Shown: positions 12,172-19,160, numbered from the stretch's first letter. The stretch is 47,458 bases of DNA from Planctomycetales bacterium (GCA_030592655.1 JAUVIQ010000002.1:1-47458), one strand, 5' to 3'. Notes: a model not told the origin generated them from the sequence alone. Translations and numbers: made by a program.

Positions 12172-12714
12172 CTACCTATCAACGACAATAACGGTGTTCC
12201 GAGGTCCCAGTGTTTCTGCCTCCGGGTCTTCCGTTTTCGGCGAATCCCTGCCTCCATCCACAAGAATGCTCGGTTGGGCAAATTCTCCATTCCTCTGCCT
12301 ATCTAACCGCGTCACAAAACACAGCGCCGCAATCAGCACGGTCAGCGCAGCCATGGAGACAAGATAAACAATCAGCACCCGGGCAAGTCTGCTGCGGGCG
12401 AGGTTGTCGCCGGCTGGTTCGCTGCGAGCAGGTTCGCTCTGCGATTTACAGATCGCCCGGCGGACATAAAACACGCCTTTGGGACTGGTCTCACGAAGAC
12501 TTGTCAAATCCGCCTGGGGTGAGTCTCGTCGAACCGCCTGCCTGATACCCAGACTCGAAACGTGCCGGCGCGCGATACTCGCCAGAACGTCTTCATCGCT
12601 CTCACTCGCCGAACGAAAAGGAACTAAAGGCGAACCGCCTGTGGTGAGCCTCGTCGAACCGTAGCGCCGGAGCGAATCCCAGGCAGGTATGTAGTTGTCA
12701 TTTTGTTCTGTCAT
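12172..12714 (-). CDS. Tail-anchored membrane protein, paralogue 1
   Basis: I trimmed the start to MTEQNDNYIPAWD by alignment with paralogue 2 (MADQKGNYVPDE). The two share EDVLASIARRHVSSLGIRQAVRRDSPQAD. A single C-terminal hydrophobic helix is VLIVYLVSMAALTVLIAALCFV. Confidence 0.55.
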   Translation of the reverse strand: MTEQNDNYIPAWDSLRRYGSTRLTTGGSPLVPFRSASESDEDVLASIARRHVSSLGIRQAVRRDSPQADLTSLRETSPKGVFYVRRAICKSQSEPARSEPAGDNLARSRLARVLIVYLVSMAALTVLIAALCFVTRLDRQRNGEFAQPSILVDGGRDSPKTEDPEAETLGPRNTVIVVDR

Positions 12715-12763
12715 GATCATCAGGTGATTATACAACCTGACACTCCTTAGCCGAAAGTTATAA

Positions 12764-12836: not shown

Positions 12837-12871
12837 TCCCTGGTCCCTAATCCCAAGTCCCTAGTCCCTGG
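12837..12871. repeat. Tandem (TCCCWRG)x5 heptamers overlapping the stop of paralogue 2
   Basis: Read directly: tccctgg tccctaa tcccaag tccctag tccctgg. The stop codon (cta, 12861-12863) lies inside the array. Confidence 0.9.
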
Positions 12872-13340
12872 TCAAGAAGTACAGCGCCACAGCTAATCCC
12901 GTCAGCGCAGCGACAACGGCGAGGTGAATAATCAGCCTGAGGGCAGGTTCATCTCGTATTGATTTGTGCATCGACTTCCGGCGAGCTCGACGAACCAGGA
13001 ACACCTCCGGCGAATGGGGCGAACGAAGGTCTATCGGCTTGCGCACAGGCATTTCGACTTCGCTCAATACAGGCATTTCGACTTCACTCAATACAGGCAT
13101 TTCGACAGGACTCACCACGGGCGGTTCGGCGGGGCTCACCACGGGCGGTTCGACGGAGCCCACAGGCGGTTCGGACGACACCCAATCCGCCTGCGGTGAG
13201 TCTTGTTGAACCGTCTGCCTGAGGCCGAAACGGGAAGCATGCTGACGCGCAATGCTCGCCAGGACATCATCATCGCCTTCATCGGCTGGTCGATGGGGCG
13301 CTTTCTCGTCAGGTACGTAGTTGCCCTTTTGGTCTGCCAT
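12861..13340 (-). CDS. Tail-anchored membrane protein, paralogue 2, with internal peptide repeats
   Basis: DDVLASIARQHASRFGLRQTVQQDSPQAD is shared with paralogue 1. Internal repeats are EPPVVSP x2 and VEMPVLSE x2.5. The C-terminal helix is LIIHLAVVAALTGLAVALYFL. Confidence 0.6.
   Translation of the reverse strand: MADQKGNYVPDEKAPHRPADEGDDDVLASIARQHASRFGLRQTVQQDSPQADWVSSEPPVGSVEPPVVSPAEPPVVSPVEMPVLSEVEMPVLSEVEMPVRKPIDLRSPHSPEVFLVRRARRKSMHKSIRDEPALRLIIHLAVVAALTGLAVALYFLTRD
13045..13180. repeat. Two families of 24-nt tandem repeats inside the coding sequence
   Basis: acaggcatttcgacttc(g/a)ctcaat occurs about 2.6 times (13045-13108). (g/a)ctcaccacgggcggttcg(g/a)cgg occurs twice, plus a degenerate copy (13109-13180). 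Confidence 0.85.
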
Positions 13341-13415: not shown

Positions 13416-14060
13416 ATGAATAACGCCCACATCATTAATCCGATCCTGATTTTAGTGCTGACTTCTGTAATGATTCTCTACATAACCGGGTGCCGGAACC
13501 ATTCGTCCACCAGTCCCGATAGTCAGGTCGTTCATTCGCCCCTGGCCGGTAAAAAAATACTCATGGTCATCGCTCCGAAGCAGTTCCGCGATGAGGAACT
13601 TTTTGTTCCGAGGGAGTATTTTCTGGTTCGCGGCGCGAAAGTAACGGTAGCAAGTTCAGCAACGGGTGAGATTCGCGGAATGTTGGGGCGGACGTTCTCG
13701 CCGGATGCGAAACTCGCCGACGTTTCGGCTACAGACTTCGACGCGGTTATTTTTGTCGGAGGGGGCGGCGCAGAGGCGTATTTCGACGATCCGGTCGCCC
13801 ACAAACTCGCCCGCGACGCGGACGCCGGCGGGAAAGTCCTCGGCGCTATCTGCATCGCGCCGGCCATTCTCGCCAAGGCCGGCGTGCTGAAAGGGCGTTC
13901 GGCGACGGCATTCGCTTCGGTCCGTGAAATACTCGTATCCGGCGGGGCAAGGGTTATGGATTCGGCATGTGTCCGGGAAGGTCGGATCGTTACGGCGGAC
14001 GGACCGGCAGCGGCTGAAGAATTCGCCTCCGACGTCGCCAAGGCGCTGACCGCAAACTAA
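13416..14060 (+). CDS. DJ-1/PfpI-family protein with lipoprotein-like N-terminus
   Basis: I trimmed the start to ATG 13416 (AAAGGAG upstream). The signal/lipobox-like N-terminus is ILVLTSVMILYITGC. The nucleophile-elbow Cys is in GAICIAPAILAKAG. Confidence 0.8.
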   Translation: MNNAHIINPILILVLTSVMILYITGCRNHSSTSPDSQVVHSPLAGKKILMVIAPKQFRDEELFVPREYFLVRGAKVTVASSATGEIRGMLGRTFSPDAKLADVSATDFDAVIFVGGGGAEAYFDDPVAHKLARDADAGGKVLGAICIAPAILAKAGVLKGRSATAFASVREILVSGGARVMDSACVREGRIVTADGPAAAEEFASDVAKALTAN

Positions 14061-14118
14061 AACCGACGGATAAACCCTGATGTGCATCGGGACGAATCCG
14101 CCGAAACGGACCGGAATC

Positions 14119-14148
14119 GATTCGTGCCGATTCGTGCCAATTGGTGCC
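14119..14148. repeat. Tandem decamers gattcgtgcc x2 plus aattggtgcc
   Basis: Read directly, just upstream of the putative promoter of the GHKL operon. Confidence 0.85.
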
Positions 14149-14156
14149 ACGTCGAA

Positions 14157-14185
14157 TTGACTTGTCCCGGCAATTGTCGTAATCT
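14157..14185 (+). promoter_or_regulatory. Sigma-70-like promoter candidate for the GHKL-dcm-vsr operon
   Basis: TTGACT (14157-14162), a 17-nt spacer, then TAATCT (14180-14185). Confidence 0.4.
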
Positions 14186-14192
14186 CTCGGCC

Positions 14193-14363
14193 ATGCCCGA
14201 CGAGAAAGCGATACTCGCCGCATTGAGAAAGTTTGCCGACGGCGTGACGGCCAAGATAACAACCTTGACCACCGGCGAGCCTAGCGGCAGGCAGTTCGCC
14301 TCATCAGGGGCCTTTTACTTATGGGGACTTTGCCGAGCGCGTCCTCACGATGGAGGTCGATAA
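14193..14363 (+). CDS. Small upstream ORF (56 aa); possibly a leader peptide or a gene remnant
   Basis: ATG at 14193 lies 8 nt after the -10 box. MPDEKAILAALRKFADGVTAKITTLTTGEP looks protein-like, but the rest (SGRQFASSGAFYLWGLCRARPHDGGR) does not. It ends at TAA, 3 nt before the GHKL start. Confidence 0.2.
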   Translation: MPDEKAILAALRKFADGVTAKITTLTTGEPSGRQFASSGAFYLWGLCRARPHDGGR

Positions 14364-14366
14364 CCA

Positions 14367-16436
14367 ATGGCCGCTGAAACACACCAAGTACTTCTTCCCG
14401 GGCGTACGCCGGAAGAACTTGCTCTTACGATCGCCGGGAATATCGTGAAACACCTCGGCGTACAGATGTACGCGGGGCGGCCCGTTCCAGCAATTGCAGA
14501 ACTTATCTCTAACTCATGGGACGCGGACGCGATAAAGGTCAATGTCCGCCTTCCGCTGGATGAAGCTTGGGATCCGACCAACCAAGACCAATTCATTGAG
14601 GTTTCAGACAACGGCAATGGCATGACTTGGGACATGGTTCGGTACGCATACCTTAACGTAGGGCGTGATCGACGCAAGACGGAAAAGACCGACAAATCTC
14701 CGGGAGGCCGCCCACTTCAAGGACGAAAAGGTGTTGGGAAGCTAGCGGGGTTTGGTATCGCCGACACTCTGGAAGTTCAGACGGTCTATAAGGACGCTGA
14801 CTCCAGTGTGAAGGAGAAGGCGCTTATTTGGTTCAAGCTAGATCTGTCGGACATAACGAAAATAGAGCAGGGCCCGGCTCCCGTTGACGTGGTATTCGCC
14901 GGTCCGATTAGCAGGGCTCCTGCGGGTGCGAGAAAGACCAAAGGAACGACGGTTGCTCTGCGGCACCTGCACGAACGGAAGGCCCGGAACGCTGACCGTT
15001 TTCACCATAGCATGGCGCAACGATTCTTGCTCATTGGGCCAAAGTTTCGCGTTCGTATAAATGGCGAAGACCTACGCGAAGAAGACATTCAACTTCAGTG
15101 GAGGGAACCAAAGAACGGCTGGGCCACGGACAACGTTACGGGTTGCGGTCCTATCAAGTACTGGATTGGATTCACCCCGCAGCCACGCAAACAAAACGAA
15201 GGAGAATTGAGCGGGATCCTCATTTACACTAGGGGTAAAATTTCACAGGAGCAGACTTTCTTTGAAATAAGCGGAGGCGTTACCGGTCAGCACGGCCTGC
15301 GCTACATGGTTGGCATGGTGAAGGCCGAATGGCTTGATGCTGGTATTGATGCGCCGGACCACATTGCTACGCCGAGAGATTCGATTGCATGGGAGAGCCC
15401 TGAGGGAACTGCGTTCAAGGAGTGGGGACAGAATCTACTAAAAAAATGCCTTTCTGAATGGGCTAAGTTCCGCGCCTCTCTGCGAGAAAAGCAGATCAAG
15501 GAAGTGAGTCCGGAGTTAATGACCCGTATCGAACGGCTGGCCCCCTCCTATAGAGATGTCGCGCTGCAATTTGTGGACAAGTTCAAGTCGGTGGAGATGG
15601 AACCAACCGAATTCCAGGACATTTTGTCTTGGTTCCTCGACGCATTGGAAAACGCAACCTTACGAAGCATACTCCAAAAACTCAGAGAGACCGACATTGC
15701 GGACCTTCGGCAATTGGACAATCTGCTTTCCAAAATGGAAGTGCGGACTGCCGTAACACTTCTTCAGATCATCGACAGCAATCTTGCTGCAATCGAAACC
15801 CTTGAAAAAATGCACCGGCAAAACGCTAAGGAACGTGGGGTTATCTCTACGCATCTGGAACGGAACCCGTGGCTCATGGATCCGACATGGATGCTCAACA
15901 AGGCCGAAGGACGAGTCGCCACTTGGATCAAGAGGGAGTTTGGGCTTGAGGAAAAGGGGGCGGCTGGAGATGCCGACCGGGCTGATTTCTTCTGCGTTGC
16001 CGTTGGTGGGACGCTGCACATTGTCGAGATCAAACGGGGTGCGCACGTTGCTACGGTCAAAGATGTAAATCAGGCGGATAAGTACCGAAAGTACGTCGTA
16101 AAACGATTTAGCGAGCTGACGGACCATAAGGCGATCAGGTACGCATATGTCCAGAGTCACCTCATCGCCGCCGAGCTACACGATGACGCGCAAAGCATTA
16201 AGGAATCCTTCGCCAACAGCGGTTGGGTGTTCTTCACAACCTGGGATGACCTCATCGAACGAGCGAAGCAGAGTCACAGCCAATTCCGCGAGATTCTTCA
16301 AAAGAGAGCGAAAGAATCCGAGGAATCCTCATATCTTGGGGTGCAGAACGTTTCTGGTGGCGGTGCGAGTGAACCCCAGCCAACAAAGAAGGCCCAAAAG
16401 AAGGCGAAACGCAAGAACAAAGGGCGCAGGAAATGA
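14367..16436 (+). CDS. GHKL (HATPase_c_3/MORC-like) ATPase fused to a C-terminal PD-(D/E)xK (Shedu/DUF4263-like) nuclease domain
   Basis: Bergerat motifs are [12 protein letters not shown] (N box), DNGNGM (G1) and [12 protein letters not shown] (G2). The C-terminal [20 protein letters not shown]...QADKYRKY fits D-x13-E-x-K plus Q..Y. A Lys-rich tail reads [16 protein letters not shown]. Confidence 0.8.
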
Positions 16437-17539
16437 GTGTCCATAGGCCTGTCGCTATAGACCTGTTTGCCGGATGCGGTGGCCTTACTAGGGGTCTCCG
16501 AGACGCGGGATTCCACGTCGCGGCGGCGGTCGAAATCAACCCCATCTCGGCGCGGACGTACAAATGGAACAACCGCCGCACCCGATTGATTGAAAAGGAC
16601 ATCCGCGAGGTGTCCGCCAAGGAACTCCTTCAAGCCGCCGGTAGTAAGCAAATCGCCCTCTTGGCCGGATGCGCCCCTTGTCAGGGGTTCTGTTCCCTGA
16701 CGGCAAAGTACAAGCGAGAGGACCCGCGCAACGAGCTTCTCCTCGTTATGGCTAAACTCATCGGGGAGATTCGGCCCGAGGCGATCATGATGGAGAACGT
16801 TCCCGGCCTTGCGGGCCGAGGGAAATCCATCTTCGACAAGTTCCTGAATGTCCTGCGGCGTCTCGGATACCAGTACGACTGGCGCATTGATCAGATGGCG
16901 GACTTCGGCCTCCCGCAATCACGCCGACGCCTAGTCCTTCTCGCCGGACACGGCTTCAAAGTGGCTTTCCCGAAGGCGTTGTACGCCCGCTCACCAGAAT
17001 GCAATTCCGGCTTGGAACCGTGGACTACGGTGAGAGATGCCATCGGTCACATGGGCGCGCCGGTTACCCTGAGCACGGCGCTCGGTAACGGTGGTCCGCA
17101 GTCGCACAACTGGCACGTGGTTCGAGATCTTCAATCGCAAACCAAGGAGCGCCTAAAAGCGGCAGAACCCGGACAGACATGGTTGAAGGTTAACGAATCA
17201 ATACGCCCGCGTTGCCATCAGAACGGTTACAATGGCTTCACCAACGTGTACGGCAGGATGGCGTGGGACCAAGCGTCACCAACCATCACGGGTGGATGCA
17301 CGACCCCCTGCAAGGGAAGGTTTGGCCACCCGGACAAACGTCGATACACTATCTCCGTCCGTGAAGCAGCGCTGCTCCAAGCGTTCCCGGAGAACTATCG
17401 CTTTGTCACCGACCAGATGGATGCTGCGTGCGACATGATTGGCAACGCCGTTCCGCCCCTGTACGCGAAGTTAGCCGCCAAAGAGGTCCTGGCCGCTCTG
17501 AAGGAACGCAACCATCGCAAGGGGGGCGCCAAACGATGA
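16433..17539 (+). CDS. dcm: DNA (cytosine-5)-methyltransferase
   Basis: Motif [10 protein letters not shown], motif IV APCQGF, motif VI ENVPGL, motif [14 protein letters not shown], motif X GNAVPP. ATGA overlap with the upstream gene at 16433-16436. Confidence 0.9.
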
Positions 17540-17985
17540 GCCGGTGGCCGGGTAATGCTGAGATGGAGCGCACAACGTTTGGCGGCTTGTCTCGCGGGCA
17601 ATTGATGTCCCGCATTCACAGCACCGGAAACCAGACGACGGAAAAGCGACTGGTTGTGCTACTCCGAAGAGCGGGCTTGAGCGGATGGCGCAGGCACCGC
17701 CCGCTTCTCGGACGGCCCGACTTCGTGTGGCCAAAGGCCAAGGTCGTCGTCTTCGTTGACGGATGTTTCTGGCACGGCCATGACTGCGGCAAAAACGTTA
17801 GCCCAAAGACTAACGTTGAAGCTTGGCGCGAGAAGATACGCCGTAACAAGGAACGGGACCGACGCGTAGACCGTTTACTTCGCCAGCAGGGCTGGCAGAT
17901 TGTGCGAATATGGGAATGCGAACTTGCCAAGAAGCCTGACAGCTGCATTGACCGAATCAGAAAAGCGTTGGGTACTCGAGGTTAA
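17536..17985 (+). CDS. vsr: Very-short-patch repair endonuclease
   Basis: [24 protein letters not shown] is the Vsr hallmark. I trimmed the start to ATG 17536, which overlaps the dcm stop as ATGA. Confidence 0.9.
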
Positions 17986-18055
17986 AGGATAGTTCAGTGC
18001 ATCCCCGTTACGTCAAGCCCGTGCCCGGCGACATCGCCAAGGCGATAACTGCTGA

Positions 18056-18784
18056 CTAAAGCGAATCGGCGTATTTGAGGATTTCGTCGATCCGGCCGAA
18101 GGGGTTCATGACATCTTCGGCCCGGAGGGTGAATGTATCTTCGGAGTTATCGAAGCCTTCGGCATGGGCATCTATAAAGCCGATATTGACCCGTCGCCCG
18201 CTGTGGTTGCGACGGGTGGGTTGACCCGGCATCTCGCTGTTGAGGTCCATCAGGATCGCGCGAACGTCCATTCCGTCGTCGTTACAACCGGGGCTGTCGA
18301 TATTGGCCGACTCTGCCTGGTCCATCTGCCTGTAAAGATATGAGCCGTAGGCGTCTTCGGCGCGCTGGTCGTTAAGTTTTGCGAGTTCTTCATCGGGGTC
18401 CGACGAGTTGTCGCCCGGGCCGAAGAAGCACTCCGCCGATGTCATCTCGTTCCTTATCAGCACCCCGCTCCCGTCGTAAGTCCTCAGCATCCCGATCCAG
18501 AGTCGATTGGTACCGTATTGCCTGCATGGATCGTCGGGCATTCCGGGGTATGGAAACGTCGAGCTGAGCGGGTCTTCCGGGCCGGTCGGGATGGAACCAT
18601 TGTATTGGGCTGAATACATGTGTATCGCTCGCATCTGCCCGCCCAGGCGGGTCAGGCAGATCGTTTCGCGCGTCAGGTCCTTTGCCCTGCCCAGGCTTGG
18701 AAGGAGGATGCTTACCAGAAGCGCGATAATGGCAACAACGACGAGCAACTCGACCAACGTGAACGCTTTGCGTGATTTTTTCAT
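18056..18784 (-). CDS. Prepilin-type N-terminal cleavage/methylation domain protein (DUF1559-like pseudopilin)
   Basis: I trimmed the start to ATG 18784: MKKSRKAFTLVELLVVVAIIALLVSILLPSL is a classic type IV pilin-like N-terminus. This family is abundant in Planctomycetota. Confidence 0.85.
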   Translation of the reverse strand: MKKSRKAFTLVELLVVVAIIALLVSILLPSLGRAKDLTRETICLTRLGGQMRAIHMYSAQYNGSIPTGPEDPLSSTFPYPGMPDDPCRQYGTNRLWIGMLRTYDGSGVLIRNEMTSAECFFGPGDNSSDPDEELAKLNDQRAEDAYGSYLYRQMDQAESANIDSPGCNDDGMDVRAILMDLNSEMPGQPTRRNHSGRRVNIGFIDAHAEGFDNSEDTFTLRAEDVMNPFGRIDEILKYADSL

Positions 18785-18940: not shown

Positions 18941-18965
18941 GTCTTCGTCCCCTGGGGACGAAGAC
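18941..18965 (-). other. 11-bp hairpin abutting the 3' end of the tRNA-Tyr-like gene
   Basis: gtcttcgtccc / gggacgaagac with a 3-nt loop and no U-tract. It may be a processing or terminator element. Confidence 0.4.
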
Positions 18966-19048
18966 TGGGAGCGGGTGGATTCGAACCACCGTAGGCGTAC
19001 GCCGTCAGATTTAAAGTCTGATCCCTTTGTCCACTCGGGCACACTCCC
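18966..19048 (-). tRNA. tRNA-Tyr-like class II tRNA with anticodon UUA (ochre-suppressor type)
   Basis: Reverse complement (83 nt): GGGAGTGTGCCCGAGTGGACAAAGGGATCAGACTTTAAATCTGACGGCGTACGCCTACGGTGGTTCGAATCCACCCGCTCCCA. The acceptor stem is GGGAGTG/CGCTCCC (one G.U). The anticodon stem is TCAGA/TCTGA with loop CTTTAAA, giving anticodon TTA (19012-19014). It has a long variable arm, a T arm GGTGG-TTCGAAT-CCACC, discriminator A, and no encoded CCA. The D and anticodon arms closely resemble E. coli tRNA-Tyr as I recall it, except for G34 to U. Confidence 0.8.
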
Positions 19049-19088
19049 AATCGGGGATAGGATGATACCATCATTTCAGAATTAGTCA

Positions 19089-19160
19089 AGCCAGCGGAGG
19101 GACTCGAACCCACAACCCCGGCTTTACAAAAGCCGTGCTCTACCGTTGAGCTACGCTGGC
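19089..19160 (-). tRNA. tRNA-Thr (anticodon UGU)
   Basis: Reverse complement: GCCAGCGTAGCTCAACGGTAGAGCACGGCTTTTGTAAAGCCGGGGTTGTGGGTTCGAGTCCCTCCGCTGGCT. The acceptor stem is GCCAGCG/CGCTGGC. The anticodon stem is CGGCT/AGCCG with loop TTTGTAA. The T stem has one U-U mismatch. Confidence 0.9.

Follow-up and report, generated by a model that had tools for sequence, protein, structure and literature searches.

The closest described systems belong to the paraMORC3 group of proteins, which Iyer, Abhiman and Aravind defined in 2008 (Biol Direct 3:8, PMC2292703) by a GHKL ATPase domain, an S5 domain and a C-terminal nuclease of the restriction endonuclease (RE) fold carrying E-D-ExK motifs. In the same work, paraMORC3 proteins were tied to cytosine methylases and the Vsr endonuclease in laterally mobile restriction-modification (R-M) operons, they were found to be widespread among Proteobacteria and Bacteroidetes, some of them standing alone, and a parallel was drawn with the protein pairs MutL-Vsr and MutL-MutH. 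The biochemistry of bacterial MORC-type proteins was still described as poorly understood in a 2021 paper (PMC8011034). Here we analyzed a stretch of 47,458 nucleotides from a Planctomycetales bacterium (GCA_030592655.1 JAUVIQ010000002.1:1-47458), subsequently designated the window, which carries a compact cassette of three genes encoding a GHKL ATPase-nuclease fusion (gene 1), a cytosine methyltransferase of the Dcm type (gene 2) and a Vsr endonuclease (gene 3). With a probability of roughly 0.85, the locus represents a self-contained, horizontally mobile R-M cassette of the Type II kind with the gene order restriction enzyme, methyltransferase, Vsr (R-M-V), in which gene 1 is the predicted restriction enzyme and is of the paraMORC3 type. 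Its kind is already known, and the cassette does not add a new class to the defence systems. Its parts, counted from the first nucleotide of the window, are the following (aa, amino acids; ORF, open reading frame; AF2, AlphaFold2; pLDDT, predicted local distance difference test).

14304 to 18007, + strand: conserved mobile R-M-V cassette block of 3.7 kb, delimited by blastn against the related locus L001
14367 to 16436, + strand: gene 1, predicted restriction endonuclease of 689 aa, from the ORF, profile matches and homologues
14475 to 14981, + strand: GHKL (Bergerat) ATP-binding domain of gene 1, residues about 37-205, from Pfam HATPase_c_3 and conservation
14982 to 15398, + strand: second, beta-rich domain (S5/transducer-like) of gene 1, residues about 206-344 with conserved K291, from the AF2 model and DSSP
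15399 to 15956, + strand: helical region of gene 1, residues about 345-530, from DSSP on the AF2 model
15957 to 16316, + strand: PD-(D/E)xK nuclease domain of gene 1, residues about 531-650 (D540, E554, K556, Q569, Y573), from the domain model, Foldseek and conservation
16317 to 16433, + strand: Lys-rich C-terminal tail of gene 1, residues 651-689, from pLDDT and conservation
16433 to 17539, + strand: gene 2, C5 DNA cytosine methyltransferase (Dcm) of 368 aa, from Pfam, TIGRFAM and PADLOC profiles
17536 to 17985, + strand: gene 3, Vsr very-short-patch repair endonuclease of 149 aa from the ATG at 17536, from profiles and homologue alignment

Gene 1 is recognized over nearly its full length by the NCBIfam model NF050001, "BbrUII/HgiDII family restriction enzyme", at 2.6e-80 and 270.8 bits, the equivalog cut-off of this model being 550 bits. 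In addition, PADLOC returned matches to two Type II restriction endonuclease models (REase_II) at 1.7e-27 and 6.5e-16. The original prediction, made from the sequence alone, had stated that no conventional restriction endonuclease is present. While no further nuclease gene was found in the cassette, gene 1 itself matches these curated restriction-enzyme models. By its sequence, gene 1 would be a distant relative of the BbrUII and HgiDII restriction enzymes, with which it shares full-length homology, the same domain order, a 5-methylcytosine (m5C) methylase as partner and a host depleted of the sequence GTCGAC. The distance is considerable, with an identity of roughly 25-30%, a value estimated from the score, and at least 150 other clusters formed at 50% identity lie nearer to gene 1 than any true member of the BbrUII/HgiDII family.

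The likeness to paraMORC3 is as follows. Gene 1 has a GHKL domain at its N-terminus in which the ATP-binding motifs are intact (HATPase_c_3; 120/120 in a sample of full-length proteins representing clusters of 50% identity or less, which was used for all conservation counts), a second domain that appears S5/transducer-like in the AF2 model (pLDDT 70.9) and contains the conserved K291, and a C-terminal nuclease of the RE fold with E489, D540, E554-x-K556 and Y573, for which the fold E-values are marginal. The neighbourhood of cytosine methylase and Vsr and the sporadic, laterally mobile distribution agree as well. We therefore consider gene 1 to be probably of the paraMORC3 type by its architecture and context. 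The subfamily of gene 1 differs in being centred on Planctomycetota and in always travelling as R-M-V. It had been proposed that a fusion of a GHKL ATPase with a Shedu-like nuclease under m5C protection has not been characterized experimentally; as a claim of novelty this has to be withdrawn, as architecture and context were already described as paraMORC3 in 2008, and the full-length model of NCBIfam is named after two REBASE enzymes.

The identities predicted for the two downstream genes were confirmed. Gene 2 is covered over its full length by PF00145 (2.3e-54) and exceeds the cut-off of TIGR00675 (136 bits, cut-off 100.65), both of which identify it as a C5-methyltransferase; it also matches the PADLOC model MTase_II at 1.5e-84 and carries invariant PCQ and ENV motifs. 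TIGR00632 (107.8 bits, cut-off 97.85) and PF03852 (8.6e-21) identify gene 3 as a Vsr endonuclease. Translation of Vsr starts at the ATG at 17536 rather than at the GTG at 17428, because the Vsr homologues of other loci can be aligned with the ATG-defined protein from its first residue onward. All three genes are located on the + strand and overlap through ATGA stop/start sequences at both junctions (16433-16436 between genes 1 and 2; 17536-17539 between genes 2 and 3), an arrangement that had been predicted and is borne out by the ORF coordinates and the junction sequences. Nuclease and methyltransferase are thus encoded by separate genes that are co-located and co-inherited, as is characteristic of Type II R-M systems.

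Homologues of gene 1 are numerous, comprising at least 613 close ones, a paralogous subfamily of 1632 and 3420 representative clusters at 50% identity. A locus scan employing one genome per species yielded 15 loci at 71-87% protein identity, the hosts of which belong to the Planctomycetota, Alphaproteobacteria, Myxococcales, Verrucomicrobiota and Acidobacteriota (five phyla by our count). The R-M-V order is kept wherever a related locus is long enough to show it, with one exception (L011). In L011 (2091-7968), a single Dcm-Vsr pair is bordered on either side by GHKL-nuclease genes that are paralogous to each other; one encodes a protein of 712 aa that is 26% identical to gene 1, and the other an intact protein of 662 aa with 74% identity. 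This close homologue follows the set of paralog, Dcm and Vsr, and no second methylase is present within about 6 kb. One methylase may cover both nucleases, implying a common target, or the second nuclease may be inactive. A gene for a phage-type integrase is located 2.5 kb downstream in L011.

A further locus, L015 (6001-8902), carries a gene 1 homologue that lacks the first 244 codons and contains at least two frameshifts, whereas both Dcm (361 aa) and Vsr (155 aa) have remained intact. The contig may derive from long-read data, in which case the frameshifts alone are not conclusive, yet the locus resembles an R-M system on its way to becoming an orphan pair of methylase and Vsr. R-M systems usually decay in this manner, losing the restriction gene and retaining the methylase gene.

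Distant homologues with 22-29% identity were inspected on seven plasmids, from Pantoea, Streptococcus, Pseudomonas, Campylobacter, Acinetobacter, Rhizobium and Deinococcus. A cytosine methylase is adjacent in all seven, in several orders and orientations, whereas Vsr is found beside only one of the seven, indicating that the methylase is the obligate partner. The association of gene 1 homologues with methyltransferases anticipated by the original prediction was hence observed both in the close loci that reach far enough and in all distant ones. Together with the conserved R-M-V order, the decay seen in L015 and the nuclease-fold model presented below, this linkage supports the proposal that gene 1 is a nuclease effector whose host would be protected by the m5C methylase. 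In two cases, the S. agalactiae plasmid L017 (1887-7087) and the Deinococcus plasmid L022 (2992-7503), the distant GHKL-nuclease and Dcm pair is part of a defence cluster; one of these clusters adjoins an R-M system of the HaeIII family, the other adjoins Vsr and the DISARM gene drmC.

The company of Vsr could also point to a repair module, in which gene 1 would be a MutL-like partner that recruits or stimulates the Vsr of the cassette at T:G mismatches, its own nuclease aiding excision. E. coli MutL indeed stimulates Vsr. Moreover, none of the close cassettes lacks Vsr, the nuclease domain finds its best fold match in EndoMS/NucS, a mismatch endonuclease, and the combination of GHKL and S5 domains is the architecture of MutL, in keeping with the MutL-Vsr and MutL-MutH parallel of Iyer et al. 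(PMC2292703). More generally, MutL acting with Vsr or MutH and the eukaryotic proteins MORC and SMCHD1 resemble gene 1 in that a GHKL-S5 ATPase module works with an RE-fold nuclease, and in the connection to epigenetic marking by cytosine methylation. However, the nuclease of gene 1 is fused in cis, the C-terminal dimerization/endonuclease domain of MutL is absent from gene 1, and the gene belongs to a mobile R-M element and not to the chromosomal repair or chromatin factors. The distribution of Vsr and Dcm among the distant homologues marks the methylase as the conserved partner, L015 keeps methylase and Vsr after loss of gene 1, so the Vsr-Dcm pair works without it, and the curated family NF050001 is named for restriction enzymes. 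Finally, transfer of a 3.7-kb cassette across phyla at 71-87% identity fits a selfish R-M element. A repair module is therefore highly improbable, and we continue with gene 1 as the predicted restriction enzyme.

Within gene 1, the sole Pfam match of the full-length protein is HATPase_c_3 (residues 41-146, 1.8e-16), which substantiates the Bergerat-fold motifs that had been noticed in the sequence. The residues E45, N49, D52, D81, G85, G122 and G124 of the N-box, G1 and G2 motifs are identical in 120/120 representatives, and K291, the putative transducer lysine, is a lysine in 102/120 and an arginine in 17/120. In a search against the sequences of the PDB, full-length gene 1 gave only a marginal match to the GHKL domain of SMCHD1 (E 0.61). 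The full-length AF2 model (pLDDT 70.9) aligns with the N and M domains of Hsp90/TRAP1 at an E-value of about 1e-12 and with the ATPase module of SMCHD1 at 5e-10, over about 420 columns, the range being about 360-470. From these alignments, residues 1 to about 344 are predicted to form a two-domain GHKL ATPase module with an Hsp90/SMCHD1-like second domain, rather than a GHKL domain directly preceding helices. A helical middle region of about 250 aa had been predicted; helices are indeed present in the model, but they span only about 185 aa (residues 345-530) and are preceded by the beta-rich domain (residues about 206-344).

The helical region ends with the conserved E489 and a PWL(I/M)DP-W motif, leading into the nuclease domain. 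The ATPase module is 29-33% identical to its counterpart in the 26%-identical paralogous subfamily, as compared to 17-20% for the helical and nuclease regions. Since the latter are the most divergent parts between the subfamilies, we infer that they may hold the specificity determinants. The Lys-rich tail (residues 651-689) is present as predicted, yet it is poorly conserved, with 15% identity even between close homologues, many of which (649-665 aa) lack it, and its pLDDT of 29-39 predicts disorder. An exact look-up of gene 1 in public assemblies returned no record.

The nuclease domain was modelled separately (residues 470-655; pLDDT 87.8, predicted template modelling score 0.83). The model contains an alpha-beta-beta-beta-alpha-beta core as in PD-(D/E)xK enzymes, and its top Foldseek matches in the PDB, namely EndoMS/NucS, SduA, MspJI, FokI, Cap4, N.BspD6I and Kpn2I, are all of the PD-(D/E)xK type. 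The C-terminal block can thus be regarded as a predicted nuclease, as had been proposed, although the E-values of the fold matches are marginal. The anticipated D-x13-E-x-K core corresponds to D540-x13-E554-x-K556 and is kept in the 26%-identical paralogous subfamily and in most representatives: D540 in 110/120, E554 in 111/120 and K556 in 81/120. E489, D540, E554 and Y573 are each kept in 109-111 of the 120. This conservation of ATPase and nuclease residues across the representatives argues that both active sites are under strong purifying selection. At the position of K556 (window 16032-16034), 26/120 representatives have M instead (E-x-M) with D540 and E554 kept; these may possess a variant active site or may be nuclease-dead relatives.

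The fold matches also bring Shedu into consideration. In a Shedu-type or other effector outside R-M, the GHKL module would sense a cue from the invader (for example phage proteins or free DNA ends) and release a non-specific, SduA-like nuclease, Dcm and Vsr being a separate housekeeping pair. E. coli SduA (8ps5) ranks fifth among the fold matches of the nuclease domain (E 4.3e-3, probability 0.90), the matches FokI, MspJI and Cap4 are non-specific cleavage modules, and members of the 26%-identical paralogous subfamily reach the SduA_C profile at 25-27 bits, which is borderline given its cut-off of 27 (E 6e-6 to 2e-5). Shedu SduA (SduA_C/DUF4263) further resembles gene 1 in having its PD-(D/E)xK nuclease after a helix and a PWL-type motif, and in the variable modules at its N-terminus. 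On the other side, the C-terminal domain of gene 1 does not match SduA_C (PF14082) at E <= 10, and its profile found no SduA sequence in the PDB. As a fold match, SduA is one of several that are equally weak. PADLOC files gene 1 under REase_II only. Shedu is a stand-alone defence gene without a link to a methylase or a self-protective modification, whereas gene 1 is always paired with Dcm. The obligate methylase linkage, maintained in all close loci reaching far enough and in 7/7 distant ones, in varied orders and orientations, marks an R-M system and not Shedu, and we judge the Shedu-type explanation quite improbable. Of the label "Shedu-like" used in the original prediction, the PD-(D/E)xK fold and the shared N-terminal helix with the PWL motif stand, but membership in the SduA_C family does not.

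Another of the fold matches, MspJI (E 5e-3), is modification-dependent, which could suggest that gene 1 is a Type IV-like nuclease directed against foreign methylation, with the neighbouring Dcm being unrelated or an anti-restriction decoy. Yet gene 1 is translationally coupled to an m5C methylase and always inherited together with it, so that a nuclease directed at methylated DNA would turn against the host itself, and no SRA-like or other reader domain for modified bases was detected in gene 1 by Pfam or in the AF2 model. This explanation appears scarcely credible to us, and the cassette is best understood as an R-M system in which restriction enzyme and methylase would address the same sites.

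Regarding these sites, the known relatives offer a candidate. HgiDII recognizes and cuts GTCGAC, and BbrUII (BbrII of B. breve UCC2003) is a neoschizomer of SalI. In the window outside the cassette, GTCGAC was observed once, with 22.5 occurrences expected under a maximal-order Markov model (P about 4e-9), and no other 6-mer palindrome of meaningful expectation is as depleted in the window; the cassette itself contains none. Summed over the flanks of the related loci, 53 occurrences compare with 99 expected. We consider the odds that GTCGAC is the target of the cassette to be about even.

Several observations weigh against the assignment of the locus to the R-M cassettes and of GTCGAC as its target. 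The score of gene 1 is far under the equivalog cut-off of NF050001, and 20 other cluster representatives, picked by clustering to span the family, score 165-400 bits, none of them reaching 550. Gene 1 thus counts as no more than a relative within the superfamily, and neither the specificity nor the cleavage position of BbrUII and HgiDII can be transferred to it. The fold matches of the nuclease domain are marginal, the best Foldseek E-value being 1.4e-3 and none being at or below 1e-3. A Pfam search with the C-terminal domain of gene 1 alone gave no match at E <= 10, and the profile of the nuclease domain retrieved no nuclease from the PDB sequences, only spurious coiled-coil matches. Furthermore, GTCGAC is not depleted in several hosts of the cassette, with 6 observed versus 5.7 expected in L001, 9 versus 9.9 in L004 and 11 versus 13 in L008. 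The host of the window avoids other palindromes too, e.g. AGCT with 23 observed and 99.8 expected, so the depletion of GTCGAC could reflect other R-M systems. Finally, the restriction gene precedes the methylase gene in one transcription unit, which is an awkward order for establishment of the cassette in a new host.

AGCT was also considered as target of the cassette. It is depleted in the window and in L001 (0 versus 6.9), and not in the other cassette hosts, and was therefore rejected. Further palindromes avoided in the window outside 14300-18010 are CGATCG (5 versus 19.7), TCGCGA (6 versus 21.0) and CCGCGG (3 versus 11.4). The avoidance of palindromes suggests that R-M systems of other kinds, e.g. 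AluI-like, existed in the lineage in the past.

In the R-M cassette proposed here, gene 2 would methylate cytosine at C5 within the target of gene 1 and thereby protect the host DNA, whereas gene 1 would cut unmethylated copies of the target. Vsr would nick the T:G mismatches arising from deamination of 5-methylcytosine and in this way limit the mutational cost of the methylase. Gene 1 presumably acts as a homodimer on a palindromic site, and nucleotide-driven dimerization of the GHKL module, as in MutL, Hsp90 and MORC, may bring together or license two nuclease domains on unmethylated DNA. Dependence of cleavage on ATP is plausible from the sequence, and in view of the invariant ATPase motifs the Mg2+-only criterion of Type II enzymes may not hold for gene 1. 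A precedent for ATP-driven "Type II" restriction is provided by CglI and NgoAVII, which are classed as Type II and have m5C methylases, yet require nucleotide hydrolysis by an associated ATPase for cleavage. In these systems the ATPase is a separate, helicase-like protein and the nuclease is of the PLD type, and neither is related in sequence to gene 1. We tentatively suggest, at somewhat less than an even chance, that gene 1 is an ATP-gated restriction enzyme in which dimerization of an N-terminal clamp is required to assemble or license two FokI-like PD-(D/E)xK domains. An additional stimulation of the cassette's own Vsr by the MutL-like module of gene 1 is less likely.

Gene 1 and its hundreds of homologues, which public sources label "ATP-binding protein" or "hypothetical protein", most probably function as the restriction endonucleases in mobile R-M-V cassettes, and this corrects the annotation. 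We know of no paraMORC protein that has been dissected biochemically. The subfamily of gene 1, being compact and highly conserved, would offer a convenient model for the role of a GHKL ATPase in restriction and, by extension, for how the prokaryotic ancestors of MORC and SMCHD1 couple binding of ATP to DNA transactions. ATP-gated cleavage, if true, would represent a control mechanism unlike that of the classical Type IIP enzymes.

The boundaries of the cassette are sharp. Compared by blastn with its closest relative, L001, it shows 87.5% DNA identity across exactly 14304-18007, which indicates that the mobile unit is the bare three-gene cassette of 3.7 kb; in the remaining loci, the shared DNA runs only from 14341/14396 to about 17970. 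The flanks consist of unrelated housekeeping genes, and no integrase or other mobility genes were found in them. Upstream of the block lies one further feature that had been noted in the sequence.

14157 to 14185, + strand: putative promoter TTGACT-17-TAATCT; the sequence is present, weak, and probably derived from the host if functional

The description of this site as a near-consensus promoter could not be upheld, since its -10 element fits TATAAT at only 3/6 positions and the site is outside the block shared with L001. A promoter scan of 13900-18200 detected 0 sites. The idea that gene 1 is preceded by a conserved promoter or operator was likewise rejected: comparison of 14 loci revealed nothing in common upstream beyond about 30-60 nt in three of them. 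An ORF of 56 codons at 14193-14363 was considered as a controller protein and dismissed, as it has no Pfam match and is kept in L001 only within the conserved DNA block.

The patch had further been described as slightly lower in GC than its neighbours and as lying next to tRNA genes. The former does not apply, as the GC content of the cassette is 0.555 compared to a window mean of 0.547, and 57% of all 3.7-kb windows are at or below the value of the cassette. The latter is correct: two tRNA genes are located about 1 kb downstream, and a pilin-like gene stands between them and the cassette. An island that is anomalous in GC or targeted to tRNA genes by an integrase was rejected on account of the average GC, the flanks without mobility genes and the pilin-like gene preceding the tRNA genes.

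One of these tRNA genes (18965-19049, - strand) adjoins the gene for tRNA-Thr(UGU) at 19089-19160 and encodes a class-II tRNA with a long variable arm and a body like bacterial tRNA-Tyr. Its anticodon loop is CUUUAAA with the anticodon UUA, which would read the stop codon UAA, and ARAGORN labels it "tRNA-Stop". Despite the tRNA with anticodon UUA, TAA terminates more of the long ORFs in the window than any other stop codon (13/27). The gene is either that of a tRNA-Tyr with a G34-to-U variant from sequencing or assembly, or that of a natural ochre-suppressor-like tRNA. On the other side of the cassette, two adjacent ORFs on the - strand (12172-12735 and 12861-13340) without Pfam matches share an N-terminal motif (DDVLASIARRHVSSLGIRQAVRRDSPQADL / DDVLASIARQHASRFGLRQTVQQDSPQADW), and the latter contains the short tandem peptide repeats PPVVSP and VEMPVLSE; the two look like paralogous, repeat-containing membrane-anchored proteins.

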